From Candidatus Woesearchaeota archaeon (GTDB taxonomy: Archaea > Nanobdellota > Nanobdellia > Woesearchaeales > ARS49): a stretch of 64,000 nt of DNA. The DNA is taken from NCBI GenBank assembly GCA_038884975.1, contig JAWAAW010000003.1:19502-83501 (forward strand), written 5' to 3'. The stretch's first letter is position 1, and each line of letters starts with the position of its first letter. Positions 3,744 to 62,966 of the stretch are shown here, piece after piece. The translations under genes were made by a program, and so were the position numbers. The notes beneath the pieces are model-generated. The model searched no databases and had not been told where the DNA came from. It worked only from the letters and a program-made list of their open reading frames with translations.

Positions 3744-5483
3744 TTACCTGCTTATCCTGTAAACCTGTATTGCAGGCAAGTCATTTATGTTCGCCGAGGT
3801 TACAATGCTCATTCTTGATTCCAGTTCCTTGTTGAAAGGCTGGAAAGGAACTGCAAGAAGGTCAAACACCCTTGAGTCAGGCACTGAAATGTCCTTCCTC
3901 TCCCTCACCTTCCTGAATGTCACGTTGTTTTCAGAAAGATACTGCTCAAATTTCGCGTCAACAAAAACAGGCTGTTGTTGCATATAACCATCAACAAGCA
4001 CGTACTTGACATCATAAGCATCAAGAAGCCTATTCGTAAGTTCGCTATTATTGCCATAGAGCATCACAACACCATCAGCGTAACGTTTCTCAACATCAAC
4101 AAAATAATTGGCATGAGTCCTCCTGACAAAAACGCATTTTCTTCCTGTCAAGCCATTCATTGCAAAACACGACTCGTCATTACTCAGAAAAACATCATTA
4201 ATTCCCGTATTCTTTTGAATCCACACGCCAATTGTGAACCATGCCTGCGTTCCAGGATCAAACTGCTCACCAAACTGCACCCACCTGTTTGACCTGTACT
4301 CACCATAACGCTGCACGAACAGCACAACTACAAGCAGAAGAATAATCGCGAACACAACATTTCTGCCATTCGGCCACTTTTTCCCAGCAAGCTGGACAAC
4401 TGTGCGCACGCCATAAACAGCAAATAGCAGTAATGGCAGAGAAATCCCCCACAAATGAGAAGGTAAGACCCACCTATCAAACAAAGGCCTAGTAATCAAA
4501 TGATGCATTGGCGCAAGAAAACCAGCAACATACCACAAAACAACATAACGCGGCTCTTTTTTATTAAAATTCAAGACACACACGACAAGACCAACGACTG
4601 ACAACAAGGTCACTATTGTTGACGCAAATGATGAAAAATTAAATGTTGAACTAAAAAGCGTCCTAAACATCCAACCAAACCCCAACAAGTCAATGTCAGT
4701 CCCATTATACTGAAAAAGAGGATTAAGCGTTTTAGCGTGATAATTAACTATAATCGGACCATAAAACAAAAGAGAAACAACAAAACCTACCAAAAGCATC
4801 GGAATATGCGTCCTAAAAGCATTCATAATTGCTGTTTTTTTGTCTTTTTGCAATAAAGTATTCACAACAACAGCGAAAGCATACATAGCCATCCCAGCCA
4901 AAAAGAAAGCAACATGCGAAAGCGCAGTACAACCCATAAACAAACCCGCAAGAAGCTTGTCACGCATCCCGCCGGTTTCTTCTGCCTTAAGCCAAAAACC
5001 AAACCACAAAGGAATAGTAATCATCCAAGGCAAAAGGTTTGGGGCACCGTCAGGTATTCCCCTTAAAACCAACGAGAAAAGCAAAACCACAAGAGCCCAA
5101 GTATCAGACTTAAACAATTGCTTTCCAAGAAAATAATAAGCAATAGCAGACAAAATTGTTGTAACAAGCCCAACATACATCTCAGCACGCAACATCGTAA
5201 CACCAGGCAACAAACTCAACAAGATAAACACATAATTCCCCAGCCACGGATAAAAAGAATAATGCCCAACAAAATAAGGATCACTCCAAAAACCATTAGC
5301 CAAATAATTCAACGCAAAACCATGGTGCGCGTAAAGGTCTCCGCCATAATAAGGCCCTGGCAGGTGCTTAAGCCTTGAATAAAGAGACAACAAAACACCA
5401 AGATAAACAAAAACCGCAACAACAGCTACCTTGACCTGCCACTTCCACCTACTCTCTTGCTGTTCTTCCACTAAAAGAAGCAC
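3744..5483 (-). CDS. Polytopic membrane protein, GT-C-like glycosyltransferase candidate
   Basis: 579 aa with more than 10 hydrophobic helices in the N-terminal two thirds and a soluble C-terminal domain. Sits inside the glycosylation locus. Confidence 0.5.
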   Translation of the reverse strand: MLLLVEEQQESRWKWQVKVAVVAVFVYLGVLLSLYSRLKHLPGPYYGGDLYAHHGFALNYLANGFWSDPYFVGHYSFYPWLGNYVFILLSLLPGVTMLRAEMYVGLVTTILSAIAYYFLGKQLFKSDTWALVVLLFSLVLRGIPDGAPNLLPWMITIPLWFGFWLKAEETGGMRDKLLAGLFMGCTALSHVAFFLAGMAMYAFAVVVNTLLQKDKKTAIMNAFRTHIPMLLVGFVVSLLFYGPIIVNYHAKTLNPLFQYNGTDIDLLGFGWMFRTLFSSTFNFSSFASTIVTLLSVVGLVVCVLNFNKKEPRYVVLWYVAGFLAPMHHLITRPLFDRWVLPSHLWGISLPLLLFAVYGVRTVVQLAGKKWPNGRNVVFAIILLLVVVLFVQRYGEYRSNRWVQFGEQFDPGTQAWFTIGVWIQKNTGINDVFLSNDESCFAMNGLTGRKCVFVRRTHANYFVDVEKRYADGVVMLYGNNSELTNRLLDAYDVKYVLVDGYMQQQPVFVDAKFEQYLSENNVTFRKVRERKDISVPDSRVFDLLAVPFQPFNKELESRMSIVTSANINDLPAIQVYRISR

Positions 5484-49718: not shown

Positions 49719-49790
49719 TGGGCGCGCTCGGATTCGAACCGAGAACCGCCGGTCTGGAGCCGGCTATTTTGCCGTTGAAACTACGCGCCC
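49719..49790 (-). tRNA. tRNA-Trp (anticodon CCA), 3' CCA not encoded
   Basis: Minus-strand sequence GGGCGCGTAGTTTCAACGGCAAAATAGCCGGCTCCAGACCGGCGGTTCTCGGTTCGAATCCGAGCGCGCCC plus a discriminator A. It has a 7-bp acceptor stem and an anticodon loop CUCCAGA (U33, C34 C35 A36). The T-arm ends GGTTCGAATCC. Confidence 0.85.
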
Positions 49791-57256: not shown

Positions 57257-58061
57257 GCTGACTGTACTCATCAAGGAACTTTCTCGCGAGTGCATAATCA
57301 TGAACGATTAAAACATTCTCGTCATTGCGCTCATTGCCATTCCTTGTCGGGTTGTAAGAGCCAGTAATAATTGTTTTGTCGTCGATAACGAATACTTTGT
57401 GATGAATGCTTCCAATAGCTGCAAAAGGAAGTTGCTTGAGGGCTTCCTTTTCTGACTTGTCAATAATACCCTCCACCTTTATGTCAGTCCTCTTGAGCTG
57501 CCTGAGAAAGTCCTCATCAGTAATGTCAGCAAGCATAAATGTAATGCCTTGTTTGGCGCCTTCAAGATATGGAAGAATGCGCTCCTTGCACCTGTCTTCT
57601 GGGCAGAAATAATTTTCTATCAGTAGGTTATTGTATGAGATTTTAGGATAAATAACGTGTTTTCTACCGCCAGGAAGCTCAGCATACTCGTCAAGATAAT
57701 TCCTTGCCAGCGAAGGGGAATGTATTATTACTGCATTGTTAGCCTTGTAAGTTCTTGTCGGGTTCCACGAGCCAGTCCAGACAACACTATTGTTTATAAT
57801 GCAGAACTTGTTATGCATCAGAGGGCCCTTTCCGTCCTCTGTCTTCCACTCAATGTTTTTCAGCGCGTTTTGTATTTCCGGCAAACTCACGTCGTACAAA
57901 GCACATTTTGCGTCAGCCGCATCATTGAGCAGATTTGCAAGCAGTGCAGTGCAATTATCACGCTCGCAAAAATAAGCTTCAATAGGAGGGCCTGTCTCAA
58001 TCGGGATGTTCTTCGCACAGGCAGCAAGAAGGAGCGATAAGACGATAATTGCCCGCCTCAT
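57231..58061 (-). CDS. Phospholipase D-family (HKD) protein, predicted lipoprotein
   Basis: Lipobox LLAAC. Two HKD-like motifs: HNKFCIINNSVVWTGSWNPT (Asp replaced by Asn) and HHKVFVIDDKTIITGSYNPT (canonical HxKx4Dx6GSxN). Confidence 0.7.
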   Translation of the reverse strand: MRRAIIVLSLLLAACAKNIPIETGPPIEAYFCERDNCTALLANLLNDAADAKCALYDVSLPEIQNALKNIEWKTEDGKGPLMHNKFCIINNSVVWTGSWNPTRTYKANNAVIIHSPSLARNYLDEYAELPGGRKHVIYPKISYNNLLIENYFCPEDRCKERILPYLEGAKQGITFMLADITDEDFLRQLKRTDIKVEGIIDKSEKEALKQLPFAAIGSIHHKVFVIDDKTIITGSYNPTRNGNERNDENVLIVHDYALARKFLDEYSQLTLSAGAS

Positions 58062-58564
58062 TGCATTGACCTCTTGCTCTTCTGCAAAGCAAACATTATC
58101 CCGGGATATTTGTCGTCGAGGGACTCAAGGGCTTTTCTCAATGAGGATTTGGGCAGGACGGGTTGTTTTATGCCTTCCAATTCACAATACTTCTCAAGCT
58201 CTTTTGATGTGATATTTGAAAATATGTTAAGGGTTTTGGTTTTCTTTGCTGTTTTGCCCTTGAATAACTGCTCAAGGAATTCAACTGCCTCATCATCAGC
58301 TGTCTTTCCGACGATAACAACCTCTGCTTTTGCCTTTGGAACATATTTCAATGGCAGACCTATGACTGCAGTTTTAAAGAGGGCTGGAAGGGCTCCTTTG
58401 CCGTCTAAGCATACCTTTTGGCCCGGCTTTAGCTCGCCATAACCCCTGATCGCTTTTCTCACCCTGCGTCTCAACAACTGGCTAAAGCAATCTTTGCAAA
58501 GAGGGCGTAAATGAGGAAAAAACACCCTTGCTGGCTTTTTGCAAACGCAGTCCTTATTGTGCAT
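58058..58564 (-). CDS. Hypothetical protein with N-terminal Cys-rich (zinc-ribbon-like) region
   Basis: 168 aa. CVCKK....CKDCF at the N-terminus, then a Lys-rich region. Confidence 0.45.
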   Translation of the reverse strand: MHNKDCVCKKPARVFFPHLRPLCKDCFSQLLRRRVRKAIRGYGELKPGQKVCLDGKGALPALFKTAVIGLPLKYVPKAKAEVVIVGKTADDEAVEFLEQLFKGKTAKKTKTLNIFSNITSKELEKYCELEGIKQPVLPKSSLRKALESLDDKYPGIMFALQKSKRSMQ

Positions 58565-58681
58565 AATATTTATATAGTAGAAAGCCCATTAATAAGGCTA
58601 TTGGGGGTTAGGAAATAGACTGAAAGGGCAAATAGGGGGCTCTGCTCAGACACTGTGATACCACTTCCAAGTAGCATATAA

Positions 58682-58697
58682 ACCGAAAGATTTATAT
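58682..58697 (+). promoter_or_regulatory. Consensus BRE/TATA promoter (CCGAAAGA-TTTATATA) in a long non-coding gap; predicted TSS near 58720
   Basis: Reads accgaaagatttatatact. There is no ATG for about 250 nt downstream on the plus strand. Confidence 0.4.
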
Positions 58698-58768
58698 ACT
58701 ACAATAGGTATATTAGAAGTTATAAGGGGGTAATAGACAAAATATCATACTGCTCAAAAATCATTATC

Positions 58769-58890
58769 TATCACCTCTTTTTCCCGCGCAGGTGCCTTCG
58801 GGCGCCTGCGTGGGTTTAATACTCACACAAAAACAATACCAATCACCTCTTTTTCCCTGGCAAGCGCTCCTCACGGGGCGTTTGCAGGGG
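58769..58890 (+). ncRNA. Two homologous structured elements (ATCACCTCTTTTTCCC + CCC-stem-loop-GGG hairpin), candidate small RNA or cis-regulatory RNA
   Basis: Hairpin 1 is 58782-58813: a 14-bp stem cccgcgcaggtgcc / ggcgcctgcgtggg with a UUCG tetraloop. Hairpin 2 is 58859-58884: caagcgctcc / ggggcgtttg with loop tcac. The stems differ but keep their pairing through compensatory changes. Both are preceded by the same 16-mer. Confidence 0.3.
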
Positions 58891-59139
58891 TTTGTCAGCC
58901 CTTAGCGGCAGCACTCGCCACTGGACATAGTTGCGCAGGGATTTAAAAGGTGGAGTTTCTTGGGTATTGCATGGCTAAGAATTATTCTGCAGCAAAGTGG
59001 CAAATAACAGTACAGGAATTGCGCAACCCAAAAGGGCAGCTTGTCATAAAGGTGACACGGCGCATTCCAGAACTTCATGTGTCAGAAACAAGGTTTTTCA
59101 TGTCAAGAAAAAAAAGCAGAGGAGAAAATAAGGGAATGG

Positions 59140-59445
59140 CTACTCTAAAACCTCGGCCTTTGACCTCAAAGACAACACAAGCTCTGGTTGCTGGAACCTG
59201 TAAATGTCAGGCACATTCATTGAGAGAAGGCGCTTGCGCAGGCATTCCTTTGGGAACCTTTTCAGGAGCTCCCTGCGTTGCTCATCATCCATTGCCACAA
59301 TCAGGTCAGCCCAATCAAGGTCCTTTGCAGAAACAGGATGCTCGCTGTATAGTCCTGCATAGCGGGTCTCAAACCTGTCCCTGAACAGCTCTGCCGCAGT
59401 CCTGCTGCGGTTCATTCCCTGATTACACACAAACAAAACCTTCAT
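59140..59445 (-). CDS. Low-molecular-weight phosphatase family protein (LMW-PTP/ArsC-like), short form
   Basis: MKVLFVCNQGMNRSRTAAELF has the CX5R P-loop at the N-terminus. About 101 aa from the ATG at 59445. The longer ORF-track version starts at a GTG with an implausible N-terminus. Confidence 0.45.
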   Translation of the reverse strand: MKVLFVCNQGMNRSRTAAELFRDRFETRYAGLYSEHPVSAKDLDWADLIVAMDDEQRRELLKRFPKECLRKRLLSMNVPDIYRFQQPELVLSLRSKAEVLE

Positions 59446-59491: not shown

Positions 59492-60589
59492 ATGCAGCAA
59501 ACAGGTCTGGTATCGCTGCCATTGCACGGCGGAAAATGCCCAAGATGGCTTTTTCCAAGAATGATAAAATTGTCAAAGGAAATAGCAACGCTAATTATTA
59601 ATGAGTACGGCACTGCTGAATTTCTACAGAGGATAAGCGACCCTTTCTTTTTTCAGTCATTGAGCTGCGTGATTGGCTTTGACTGGCACAGCTCAGGAGT
59701 CACAACAACAACCTGCGGGGCACTAAAGGAAGCATTGTCAGCAGAAGAACACGGCATAATCGTGTGCGGAGGAAAAGGAAGAATGTCAAGAAAGGTACCT
59801 GACGAAATAATTGCAGGAGCATACAAGTTCAACCTGCAGACGCGGATAACAAACAATCTTGTCAGGGCAAGCAAAATGTCAGCAAAAGTTGATACTGCCT
59901 TAGTGCAGGACGGCTACCAGCTCTACCACCACACATTCTTTATTGACGAAAAAGGAAACTGGGCAGTAGTCCAGCAAGGAATGAATGACGGCAACGGCTA
60001 CGCAAGACGATATCACTGGCTTTCTGACAATGTGCACAGCTTTGTTGAAGAACCACATTCTGCCATTTGCTGTGACGCCCGCACAGAAAACACCCTGAAC
60101 ATGACTGCAAAAGAGGCATTCCAGGCAAGAAAGGCAAGCATTGATGCAGTAAAAGATGGTATTTTGTTGAGAAGGCAAAGCACCCTGTCTGAATTTTTCG
60201 GGAAAACCCGCAAAATAGCAATGCCCAGCCGTCATGCCTTGCATTTTGAAGACCTTTCAGCACAATCACAGAACGCCTTGAGGAGGGCTTATGACTTACA
60301 GCCAAAAAATTACGAAGAGCTTGTTGCACTGCAAGGAATCGGTCCAAAGACAATAAGGGCGCTTGCTCTTGTTTCTGAACTGGTATACGGCGCTCCTGCA
60401 TCGTGGAAAGACCCTGCAAAATACTCGTTCGCGCACGGAGGAAAAGACGGATGGCCTTACAGGATAAACCAGCAGCAGTATGACAAAACAATTGAAATAC
60501 TCAAGGGAGCAATAGCTGATGCAAGATTAGGTGAGAAAGAAAAGGCAGGCGCAATAAGAAGGCTAAGCGCATTTATTAGAACTGATTAA
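59492..60589 (+). CDS. Conserved hypothetical protein with helix-hairpin-helix motif
   Basis: 365 aa. FDWHSSGVTTT block and LVALQGIGPKTIRALALVSELVYG HhH motif near the C-terminus. Family not assigned. Confidence 0.55.
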   Translation: MQQTGLVSLPLHGGKCPRWLFPRMIKLSKEIATLIINEYGTAEFLQRISDPFFFQSLSCVIGFDWHSSGVTTTTCGALKEALSAEEHGIIVCGGKGRMSRKVPDEIIAGAYKFNLQTRITNNLVRASKMSAKVDTALVQDGYQLYHHTFFIDEKGNWAVVQQGMNDGNGYARRYHWLSDNVHSFVEEPHSAICCDARTENTLNMTAKEAFQARKASIDAVKDGILLRRQSTLSEFFGKTRKIAMPSRHALHFEDLSAQSQNALRRAYDLQPKNYEELVALQGIGPKTIRALALVSELVYGAPASWKDPAKYSFAHGGKDGWPYRINQQQYDKTIEILKGAIADARLGEKEKAGAIRRLSAFIRTD

Positions 60590-60972: not shown

Positions 60973-62745
60973 TCAGCGGTTTCTTTGCCTCTTCCTGCCC
61001 ATTCGCCCTATCGCGTCCTGTAACGCATCTGCAAACATTGAAATGATTATTCCGAGAATGATGCCGCCAATAATCCAGAGCGTGTGGGGTTCAATGCGCT
61101 GCCAAAGAGTGATTTTGTTTGGCTTTTTGTGACCAAAATAAATGTCAAGGTTTGAGAACTCAAGAGCATATTCTGCAAACAACAAGGAAGAGTATTTGTC
61201 GATGTGCTTCAACGAGCCCGCGTATTCGTAATAACTGTAGCCGATTATTGGAAAAATGCCTTTTTGCTGGCTCCTTATGATTGCGTTACGCACAATGCCA
61301 AGCTTTAAGTCAATAAGTCCGTCAATCCTGGACGGTTCAACACCAATAACGCCAAGTATTACATCTGCCTCTGCCTTTGACTTGGACGCCTTGTACAAAC
61401 AAAGCGTATAATTGCCAGAAGAAAGGTCTGCATGCGCCTTTTCAAGCTCAGCTCTGGACTCAGCGAGAGAATCAGGAAGAAGAGAACGAACATAACTTAT
61501 GCGCTCCTCTGCCTCTGAAATCTTTGAAATGCACGCATCACGCAGACCTGACCTGTCAACAATTGCTGTAGTGTCGTTGTTGTCAAAAAATCTTGCCCAG
61601 GTCTTTGCAGAAAACAACCTTTCCTCTGCATAAGCAATGCCGGCAACAAGATTTTCAGTGTCTGTCTTGTTCTTCACAACGTCCTCAATAACGCTTTCTG
61701 CCTCTGAAATCCTTTCCTTCACTGCCATATATGTCTGAAGGTCAGTAAGGCTCGTGATGTTTCTTGCATCAATTGCAGAAGAATAACTTCCAATCCTTTC
61801 CTTAAGCTCACGCAATGCCTTCGCAATGCCTTCAGTCGTCCAGTTTCTTTGCAACGCCCATGCCTGCTTGAGCCCAACATTTGTCCTGAAACAGAAAGAA
61901 GCAGAAGCATAATACTGGCTTGCGTTAAAGACATCCTTTGCCCTCGTGCTCATATTCAGTGCCGCAAGCTCAATCTCTGTTGTGTTTTTTCCTGACCTGT
62001 GGCTTTCAAGCGAAACATTGATTTTTTGGGTGCGGTTGCAAAGGTCAATGGCAATCTGGCGCATTGTTTCTTCATAACCCTTCTCTATAGAGAACTCGGA
62101 TTTTGCCCTTGAAAAATTCCTGCCTGTGTATTCTTCCAGCGCGTCAATAATTGTTGAGACCTCTACGACTTCAATGCCAAGGACCTTGCCATAAGCAATG
62201 AGGTCTATGGTGGTGTTTGTCGTGCTGTCAGTCAGGTTTGCAGTCCCGCCAGGTATCAGCACCCTTGAAAGTCCTGCTTCTGCAGCAGCACCTATCTTTT
62301 CCTTTAGCCCACCAACAGGACCAATGATTCCACCAGAGTTTATCGTGCCCGTGATTGCGGTGTCATTCCGCAACTCAAGCCCTGCAATCAGTGACGCCAC
62401 AAGAATGCCTGCTGCTGAGCCAGCGCTTGGGCCTCCAACAATACTTGGCAAGGCCTTTATCGTGAAATAAAAGTCCTTGTCAGAGCAGTCAATGTCAAGC
62501 TCCCTGCACGCAACCTGCTGGGCAAACCGCATTGAAATCTGGGTTGTTATCTTGGTGAGCGGAAAAGTCTCAAGATAAACCCTGTTACTGCCAGATTCAA
62601 CCCTTAAATCAAGGTCCGCAACAGCACCTGACTCCTTGCCGCTGCTGTCCTCCGCAAGCGCAAGAAGCTTGATTGAGCCGGACTGGGCAAAAACAGAAGA
62701 AGCAAGAAGCGCAATTACTGTAATCCACGCGAGCAGTTTCATTGG
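60973..62745 (-). CDS. Secreted/membrane-anchored Lon-like S16 serine peptidase without AAA+ domain
   Basis: Signal peptide MKLLAWITVIALLASSVFA (M35 start). Lon proteolytic-domain motifs DGPSAGSAAG (Ser) and GGLKEKIGAA (Lys dyad). No Walker A/B. An approximately 350-aa helical region follows. C-terminal TM IIGGIILGIIISMF plus a basic tail. Confidence 0.7.
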   Translation of the reverse strand, partial: PMKLLAWITVIALLASSVFAQSGSIKLLALAEDSSGKESGAVADLDLRVESGSNRVYLETFPLTKITTQISMRFAQQVACRELDIDCSDKDFYFTIKALPSIVGGPSAGSAAGILVASLIAGLELRNDTAITGTINSGGIIGPVGGLKEKIGAAAEAGLSRVLIPGGTANLTDSTTNTTIDLIAYGKVLGIEVVEVSTIIDALEEYTGRNFSRAKSEFSIEKGYEETMRQIAIDLCNRTQKINVSLESHRSGKNTTEIELAALNMSTRAKDVFNASQYYASASFCFRTNVGLKQAWALQRNWTTEGIAKALRELKERIGSYSSAIDARNITSLTDLQTYMAVKERISEAESVIEDVVKNKTDTENLVAGIAYAEERLFSAKTWARFFDNNDTTAIVDRSGLRDACISKISEAEERISYVRSLLPDSLAESRAELEKAHADLSSGNYTLCLYKASKSKAEADVILGVIGVEPSRIDGLIDLKLGIVRNAIIRSQQKGIFPIIGYSYYEYAGSLKHIDKYSSLLFAEYALEFSNLDIYFGHKKPNKITLWQRIEPHTLWIIGGIILGIIISMFADALQDAIGRMGRKRQRNR

Positions 62746-62966
62746 GGCAGAGACAAGGCAGGTGCTTATAAGGATTTGCAAGAAAGCAGCATTAAGAGAA
62801 GCAAACTCCAAATAACGCGCCTTCGGCGAGAGACACTCCTCACTCATGCAAACCGAACTCCGTTCAGGTTTGCGAGTTCGGAGGAGATAATAGGGGAAGA
62901 ATTTCCATTATTATTGGTAACGCGACTGTAAAGCGCCCGTTATTCACTAATTTATCTGATGCAGAA

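Follow-up and report, generated by a model that had tools for sequence, protein, structure and literature searches.

The intergenic locus and its two units

A 575-bp gap (58565-59139) separates two minus-strand genes in the 64,000-nucleotide stretch of a Candidatus Woesearchaeota archaeon contig (JAWAAW010000003.1) that was analyzed in the current study and is hereafter called the window. The flanking genes encode a 168-aa zinc-ribbon protein (58058-58564) and a low-molecular-weight phosphatase (59140-59445), and the gap itself carries a consensus archaeal promoter followed by two units, each composed of the 16-mer AUCACCUCUUUUUCCC and a hairpin. An initial annotation of this DNA had described the promoter, both 16-mers and both hairpins, and all of these features were confirmed. 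Comparison with other genomes revealed that the locus belongs, with its two units, to a conserved family of small-RNA genes that is phylum-wide in Woesearchaeota. The small RNA is previously undescribed and absent from Rfam: a full-text literature search found no description of it, and the Rfam/Infernal search proposed in the initial annotation returned no known family, with no match at the element in the window using Rfam 15 (gathering scores, E ≤ 10) and none in eight other loci (E ≤ 1).

The promoter on the plus strand consists of a transcription factor B recognition element (BRE; CCGAAAGA, 58683-58690) and a TATA box (TTTATATA, 58691-58698), which together form the sole perfect CGAAANNTTTAWATA of the window (58683-58698) and are invariant among the syntenic relatives; it had been correctly recognized as a consensus promoter and placed one base too far to the left (58682-58697). 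Considering a TATA spacing of 22-24 nt, comparable to the TATA-to-gene spacing of the tRNA-Trp gene in the window, transcription is predicted to start at about 58717-58723, giving a plus-strand leader at 58717-58769. The earlier remark that no ATG occurs for about 250 nt past the predicted start also holds, the first plus-strand ATG being located at 58971.

Unit 1 begins with the 16-mer at 58770-58785 (plus strand) and continues into hairpin 1 (58783-58814, plus strand), in which 14 contiguous pairs with a CCC/GGG closure carry a UUCG loop and are followed by UUU (58815-58817); two of these pairs are G·U and are valid on the plus strand only. The inter-unit spacer (58815-58841, plus strand) has no promoter and is variable in length and sequence, save for the UACCA right before unit 2. 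It leads to the second 16-mer (58842-58857, plus strand) and to hairpin 2 (58855-58890, plus strand), formed by 11 pairs, a G×A mismatch and 4 further pairs under a UCAC loop, after which UUUGUCA (58891-58897) marks the likely 3' end region. Both units have the invariant 16-mer, and the homology between the units reaches 13 nt upstream of the 16-mers. A search for further copies of the 16-mer and hairpin, also suggested in the initial annotation, located these two in the window and about one locus per genome. Exact ATCACCTCTTTTTCCC occurs twice in the window, at the two 16-mers and both times on the plus strand, no further match was found in the 64 kb at up to two mismatches, and allowing up to three mismatches gave six matches against 0.67 expected. 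A covariance model run over the whole window with filters off recovered the two units only, with 72.4 bits for unit 1 and 48.5 bits for unit 2.

Folding of the region 58715-58960 gave z = -6.4 for the plus strand and z = -4.6 for the minus strand. In the minimum free energy fold, positions 58724-58737 of the leader pair with 58767-58780, the leader side of this pairing being formed by a Shine-Dalgarno (SD)-like G-run, AAGGGGGU (58724-58731), and by AUAGA (58733-58737); this helix is unchanging in close relatives and thus carries no covariation support.

An independent set of eight loci was reached through homologues of the zinc-ribbon protein (54-99% identity) and not through a DNA pattern, and all eight carry two tandem units with identical 16-mers. 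In the synteny alignments, the intergenic region from 58565 to about 58900 is conserved far above the flanking coding DNA. The 16-mers and the bases right before them are invariant in the syntenic loci, the spacer and the middle of the leader vary, and the hairpins change by compensatory substitution, as in hairpin 1, where C-G pairs are replaced by G-C in comparison with two of the relatives (L131 and L134). These alignments and those of the whole family bore out the initial annotation in that the two units are homologous, with hairpins closed by CCC/GGG, and that their stems differ and still pair; the comparison with homologous intergenic regions for which it had called found the hairpins kept as structures, and its plus-strand, promoter-driven structured RNA received comparative support. 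Since conservation decays past GGGGTTTGTCA, at about 58900, this is the likely 3' boundary of the element, which as an independent plus-strand small-RNA gene would span 58683 to about 58900, and because conservation ends there, neither the open reading frame (ORF) at 58971 nor the antisense overlap with the phosphatase gene is a conserved feature. A transcript running antisense into the phosphatase gene, which had been put forward earlier, thus received no support as the purpose of the RNA, the phosphatase gene being a lineage-specific insertion.

A small-RNA gene family in Woesearchaeota and tailed viruses

Scanning one genome per species (GTDB) for the exact pattern ATCACCTCTTTTTCCC + 20-36 nt + GGGTTT retrieved at least 119 loci, distributed over 118 assemblies that bear the label Woesearchaeota, Nanoarchaeota/Nanoarchaeia or a similar one, with about 1.2 chance matches expected according to our own estimate. 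This number is a lower bound of the family size, and the counts of contexts, promoters and loops over the family given below refer to the loci or units listed by this exact-pattern scan. Every listed copy has the same layout, namely AUCACCUCUUUUUCCC, a hairpin of variable sequence and a U-run; the minimal unit comprises about 55 nt, and there are one or two units per locus. The 13-nt pyrimidine stretch AUCACCUCUUUUU, located outside the hairpin, is invariant in each unit. A less biased view of the 16-mer is provided by the syntenic set and by a few variant partner units, whose 16-mers (AACACCUCUUUUCCC, UUCACCUCUUUUUCCC and AUCACCUCUUUCCC) all keep the core CACCUCUUU.

Pairing in the hairpins was evaluated in two alignments, one of 22 units without gaps (A1) and one of 112 units aligned with a covariance model (A2). 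In A1, 91.9% of the cells were paired, compared to 64.2% after shuffling and 26-56% when the 3' partner was slid, and compensatory changes were present in 11 of the 14 pairs; in A2, paired cells amounted to 94.4% compared to 65.6% after shuffling, and double-change cells to 444 compared to 119. The three closing C-G pairs showed no variation, a 1x1 mismatch was frequent at stem position five, and the GCA/UGC directly above this mismatch was semi-conserved, suggesting that the lower stem is read by a partner. Among the loops of 131 units, 59 were UUCG and 17 were GCAA, and 14% of the stem pairs were G·U, pairs that would turn into C·A mismatches if the minus strand were transcribed; the strand is thus fixed as plus by the UUCG and GNRA loops and by these G·U pairs. 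Besides, U5 directly precedes the hairpin in all units and a run of 3-7 U follows it (3 in 43 of 108 units, 4 in 41 and at least 5 in 23), and this predicted combination of U5, hairpin and U-run matches the anatomy of Hfq/Sm-dependent small RNAs (sRNAs).

Nearly all listed loci have a BRE/TATA element (aaCCGAAAGnTTTAWATA) upstream on the same strand, at discrete distances that range from 21 to 110 nt between promoter and motif. For distances of 21-24 nt, transcription is predicted to begin with the first base, A, in AUCACC; a short leader, AAACAUCU, characterizes distances of 28-30 nt; and from 35 nt upwards, a class that includes the window with 71 nt, GUAGUAAC is found in the leader, in most cases together with a G-run (for example UUGGGGGU). 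Such runs are present in the majority of long leaders, and 18 of 60 long leaders were more complementary to the motif than shuffled sequences (p ≤ 0.05), about 3 being expected. Another leader type bears its own hairpin and has no such pairing with the motif. Because unit 2 of the window has no promoter, and the spacer between the units has just 6-11 nt in other tandem loci, units 1 and 2 appear to be co-transcribed, and hairpin 1 with its UUU is therefore not a complete stop. A terminator scan (at least 5 T in 8) gave no hit at the element, where the hairpin itself is present, and transcription of unit 2 requires read-through of hairpin 1.

Known classes of elements were also considered. ARAGORN identified a tRNA-Trp (49719-49790) as the only tRNA of the window and none in the viral loci described below; no box C/D or H/ACA boxes occur in the sequence of the element, in which the stems are continuous save for one 1x1 mismatch, and the snoRNA-type matches of Rfam in the window are weak and lie elsewhere. 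A clustered regularly interspaced short palindromic repeat (CRISPR) array was rejected on account of the one or two units per locus and of a variable part that is always a self-complementary hairpin capped by a tetraloop. A dispersed repeat of the repetitive extragenic palindromic (REP) or miniature inverted-repeat transposable element (MITE) type was rejected likewise, because the window has only two copies, adjacent to each other, and genomes have about one locus each (at least 119 loci from 118 genomes); the REP-like dispersal that the initial annotation had named as evidence against its own reading did not occur. One genome has two loci, with one copy in the Lon context and one in the DnaG context (L044 and L061).

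Complete units, each equipped with an individual TATA box and hairpin sequence, were also found in seven IMG/VR contigs (L124-L130). These contigs belong to tailed viruses, encoding a portal protein and a large terminase, and five of the seven carry the unit on the same strand in the interval from terL to the portal gene. Since the viral copies have their own promoters, the product is expected to be diffusible and to act in trans. In one of these contigs (L125; unit at 4986-5037, minus strand), a 73-aa ORF with a CxxC...CxxC pattern is located between the unit and the portal gene. Another contig is an outlier (L128; 7900-7980, plus strand), in which AGGAGG, 8 nt and an ATG stand directly before the 16-mer, and the sequence is readable as the start of an ORF (MITSFSLSH...).

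The genomic context of the family was variable. The downstream gene is convergent in most listed loci (66 + 9), and since the proteins encoded downstream on the same strand are mutually unrelated and share no common family, the units are not cis-leaders of any particular gene. The commonest context is the 3' end of a convergent gene for a Lon-like S16 protease (72 loci), and genes for PLD-like (37), topoisomerase (24) and zinc-ribbon (20) proteins are also found in the vicinity. The end of the Lon-like gene abuts the RNA unit in most relatives; the window has the same neighbour genes, with the phosphatase and DUF763 genes inserted and about 2 kb between the Lon-like gene and the RNA unit.

Likeness to the 16S rRNA tail and candidate roles

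The first 10 nt of the 16-mer, AUCACCUCUU, are identical in 9 of 10 positions to AUCACCUCCU, the archaeal consensus of the 16S rRNA 3' end (PMC7531240), the reference being this consensus and not the 16S rRNA of the host. The 16-mer had previously been read as a complement of the SD sequence, which stands, and the likeness to the 16S 3' end itself, as well as the phylum-wide family, had been missed. We tentatively propose, with a confidence that falls somewhat short of even, that the RNA acts in trans as a mimic of the 16S rRNA 3' tail and occupies molecules that normally recognize this tail. The favoured partner would be the tail-binding KH protein aDim2p/Pno1, perhaps together with the maturation partners Rio/Nob1, and a purine-rich SD-type RNA would be the alternative. 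The U5, hairpin and U-tail would serve termination and stability and possibly constitute a binding module for Sm-like archaeal proteins (SmAP). In the long-leader versions, the SD-like GGGGGU of the leader would pair in cis with the first motif and mask it, so that the second motif would stay exposed. In the ~55-nt unit, experimenters would have a short, synthesizable ligand.

The protein aDim2p/Pno1 was listed as a candidate partner before the secondary genomic contexts were annotated. According to Jia et al. (2010), as cited in PMC12127562, aDim2p binds a fragment of the 16S 3' end, the complex being 3aev. A RIO1 kinase gene is divergent from the RNA gene in 14 listed loci (L026 and 13 others, at about -150 to -1450 relative to the unit), and the gene of a two-KH-domain protein comes next after RIO1 in 11 of these 14; this KH protein and P. 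horikoshii PH1566/aDim2p are clearly orthologous (E = 3.6e-48 to PDB 2e3u/3aev). DnaG is located on the other side, downstream, in nine loci, and in another clade the RNA gene follows a S24e-RpoE-PIN operon. The rio1-dim2 adjacency probably represents one ancestral arrangement per clade, and as circumstantial evidence it fits a link to the 16S 3' end.

The units resemble the 16S 3' terminus in the tail identity and in the stable hairpin that adjoins it, and in compact tandem loci the succession of a hairpin, 6-11 nt and AUCACCUC follows the 16S order. The lower stem of the unit is often GCAGG/CCUGC, compared to GUAGG/CCUGC in helix 45, a weak likeness that comes from our own comparison. In contrast, the unit lies outside an rRNA gene and its motif continues as U5, and helix 45 has a GGAA loop whereas the units have UUCG or GNRA loops. 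A true 16S end or fragment was rejected, as no 16S motifs were found in any locus and no 16S sequence lies upstream. A metagenome scan for 16S ends continuing ATCACCTCTTT returned bacterial 16S only, with one C missing and without the hairpin unit, and is uninformative on Woesearchaeota 16S because only bacterial ends were returned. In metagenome contigs (L135-L171), 37 bacterial 16S genes, many of them in assemblies with BNJU or BNJT prefixes, read GGATCACCTCTTTCTAAGG, one C short of the usual CCTCC, and these ends may be homopolymer sequencing errors or real anti-SD variants.

Several points weigh against the tail mimic. The 9/10 match is to the archaeal consensus only, because no 16S gene of these organisms was retrieved, and the constancy of the 16-mer in the set of at least 119 loci is partly imposed by construction, because the scan demanded an exact match. 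The motif stands 5' of the hairpin, whereas the tail stands 3' of helix 45 in 16S rRNA, and the GG that precedes AUCACC in 16S rRNA is missing from the motif. Moreover, outside the element GAGGTGAT is no more frequent than expected by chance, the 8-kb neighbourhoods yielded no recurrent mRNA target, the rio1-dim2 adjacency is confined to one clade, and the commonest context (the Lon-like protease, 72 loci) has no link to the ribosome. Finally, SD-like motifs were present in 49% of the start regions in the viral contigs compared to 15% in the host loci. Such SD richness of the viruses speaks against a decoy that simply blocks the SD, although a decoy directed at an anti-SD-masking protein would be consistent with it.

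The proposed mimic can be compared to known RNA decoys, such as 6S RNA, which mimics open promoter DNA, and CsrB/RsmZ, which titrate CsrA, in that a copy of a site is displayed in one or several repeats; in the RNA described here the imitated site would differ, being the rRNA 3' tail, and our literature search yielded no description of an RNA that mimics the 16S 3' tail. It also resembles the translation modifiers of phages (tRNAs, and bS21 acting at the anti-SD) in that tailed viruses carry their own promoter-equipped copy, and differs from them in that the viral gene is an RNA and in that any effect on SD-dependent initiation would need to favour an SD-rich virus. A fuller scheme, which we consider speculative and rather unlikely as a whole, is that this RNA of Woesearchaeota and their tailed viruses imitates the 16S tail and, through titration of aDim2p/Pno1 or through SD/anti-SD competition, sets SD-dependent initiation or late small-subunit maturation, the viral copies tilting the balance. 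If true, an RNA would for the first time be seen to mimic an rRNA terminus, and the phage-encoded bS21 would have a counterpart made of RNA. Should the tail mimicry hold, it would represent a new control of archaeal translation initiation or ribosome maturation and a new means by which viruses take over their hosts. RNA regulators are almost uncharted in DPANN archaea, which are uncultivated or difficult to grow, and for annotators the family adds a new gene of about 55 nt per unit with rRNA-like invariance and clear covariation in more than 100 species-level genomes and in viruses; the copy described here has the strongest consensus promoter of the window.

An ordinary base-pairing sRNA, in which AUCACCUCUUUUU is a seed that represses a defined set of mRNAs at purine-rich ribosome-binding regions, the remainder is an Hfq/Sm module and the 16S likeness merely reflects SD targets, is an unlikely explanation. 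The seed, the U-rich stretch, the GC-rich hairpin and the U-tail correspond to what Ishikawa et al. (2012) are reported to have described as the Hfq-binding module of bacterial sRNAs, and a stand-alone promoter, a 5' single-stranded seed and a 3' U-run are likewise found in Hfq-dependent sRNAs. In the short-leader class the seed lies at the predicted 5' end, the G-run of the long leaders pairs with it, and SD-like motifs precede some genes: GGAGG, GGGGT, GGGGG and GGTGA are enriched before starts in the host loci, in about 15% of genes. However, a seed with multiple targets is not normally invariant over 13-16 nt in more than 100 species, GAGGTGAT shows no enrichment beyond the element, no recurrent target was found near the loci, and the viruses that bear the RNA are SD-rich. 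Most nearby genes also appear leaderless, as do many first genes. The complement of the 16-mer, searched in about 0.93 Mb of loci, gave matches that were for the most part A-rich coding sequence or element copies that have diverged, and the start regions of the neighbouring zinc-ribbon, PLD and Lon families showed no conserved complementarity to the motif. Differences to Hfq-dependent sRNAs are the archaeal host, the putative Sm-like partner, the seed invariant across a phylum-level group and the short U-tail (3-4 U in 84 of 108 units).

A role as scaffold or guide in a ribonucleoprotein unrelated to the ribosome appears quite improbable; here U5 together with the hairpin would provide an Sm-type site, and RNA processing would be directed by the 5' arm in the manner of U7 small nuclear RNA (snRNA). 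U7 snRNA is organized as a 5' guide, an Sm site and a 3' hairpin, and it shares with the units a size of about 55-70 nt, a single-stranded 5' guide of the CUCUUU type, a U-rich site of the Sm type and a 3' hairpin frequently capped by UUCG, so that both the ~55-nt size and the order of the elements are similar. Some leaders of the family add a 5' hairpin, which leaves the motif between two hairpins, and DnaG, which is a subunit of the archaeal exosome, is encoded downstream in nine loci. Against this, no processing target was identified, the resemblance is confined to architecture, and the 9/10 identity to the 16S tail would have to be a coincidence.

A cis-acting conditional terminator, which would yield a short RNA and, upon regulated read-through, an antisense RNA to the convergent gene or, in the viruses, expression of the structural genes, is very doubtful. 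It would account for the hairpin with U3-4, which resembles an intrinsic terminator, for unit 2 being reached by read-through of hairpin 1, and for the position of the viral unit, which is ahead of a small ORF and of the portal gene and shares their strand. The downstream genes vary in family and orientation, however, conservation stops right past hairpin 2, and a generic terminator has no need of an invariant 16-mer.

A mobile element or one acting at the DNA level (REP/MITE-like repeat, attachment site of a virus, origin of replication) is highly improbable. The 16-mer is common to viruses and hosts, as the core of an attachment site would be, and some genomes have two loci (L044, L061), but the low copy number (two copies side by side in the 64 kb, roughly one locus per genome), the G·U pairs and RNA tetraloops, the dedicated promoter, the viral copies that are complete genes with hairpin sequences of their own, and the lack of a GC-skew switch at the site speak against it. 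The minus-strand reading of the initial annotation, with GGGAAAAAGAGGTGAT as an SD sequence for a 14-codon leader peptide attenuating the gene at 58058-58564, is practically untenable and was rejected: the ORF MIFEQYDILSITPL does exist 5 nt past the motif and a CAT lies right upstream of the 16-mer in many loci, but the pairing rules (G·U pairs, UUCG and GNRA loops) fit the plus strand only, the promoter has the plus orientation, the mini-ORFs of other loci are variable in sequence with 4-14 codons or are missing, and the zinc-ribbon gene, which looks leaderless, has its own TATA 25 nt before the ATG.

Surroundings of the RNA gene

Upstream of the promoter lies a conserved block (58565-58682, no strand assigned; repeat families D2 and D3) that is kept in six of seven syntenic loci and shows high conservation within the subclade. 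It contains TTATTAAT at 58597-58590, the likely leaderless promoter of the minus-strand zinc-ribbon gene, as well as two G5 runs, another TATA (58569-58576) and a degenerate copy that resembles the promoter and leader, with GAUACCACUUCC. The plus-strand fold of this block has z = -2.3 with a positive covariation term, that is, a weak support for structure, and a separate structured RNA at 58596-58690 was rejected for its weak support; the block may be a divergent promoter region or a decayed third unit. On the other side of the element (58895-58945), UUAGCGNNAGC past hairpin 2 is kept in five of seven relatives and a small GCG...CGC stem is possible there, and the transcript may reach 20-50 nt past the U-run that follows hairpin 2. 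A 137-aa ORF at 58971-59384 (plus strand), antisense over the phosphatase gene, was discarded as a coding sequence and is most likely spurious, considering that it has no Pfam match and lies in a region that is not kept in relatives.

The zinc-ribbon gene has a TATA-like box of its own about 25 nt before its ATG, as it does in other clades, and to judge from this arrangement its mRNA looks leaderless. Its protein has no Pfam match. The predicted structure (pLDDT 68, moderate) gave Foldseek TM scores of 0.76-0.78, normalized by query length, to NcsA (6scy), which suggests a miniature TtuA/NcsA-type tRNA-thiolase fold, the profile matches covering the N-terminal zinc finger. Because the PP-loop is degenerate (DGKGA compared to SGGKDS), the protein is probably catalytically dead, and it may act in RNA binding only. 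In two relatives (L133, 5551-6188, and L134, 2905-3542), a ribbon-helix-helix/PIN toxin-antitoxin-like pair that is absent from the window is found between the zinc-ribbon and PLD-like genes. Beyond the phosphatase gene, the window encodes the DUF763 protein (59492-60589, plus strand) and the Lon-like S16 protease, which is secreted or membrane-bound (60973-62847, minus strand).

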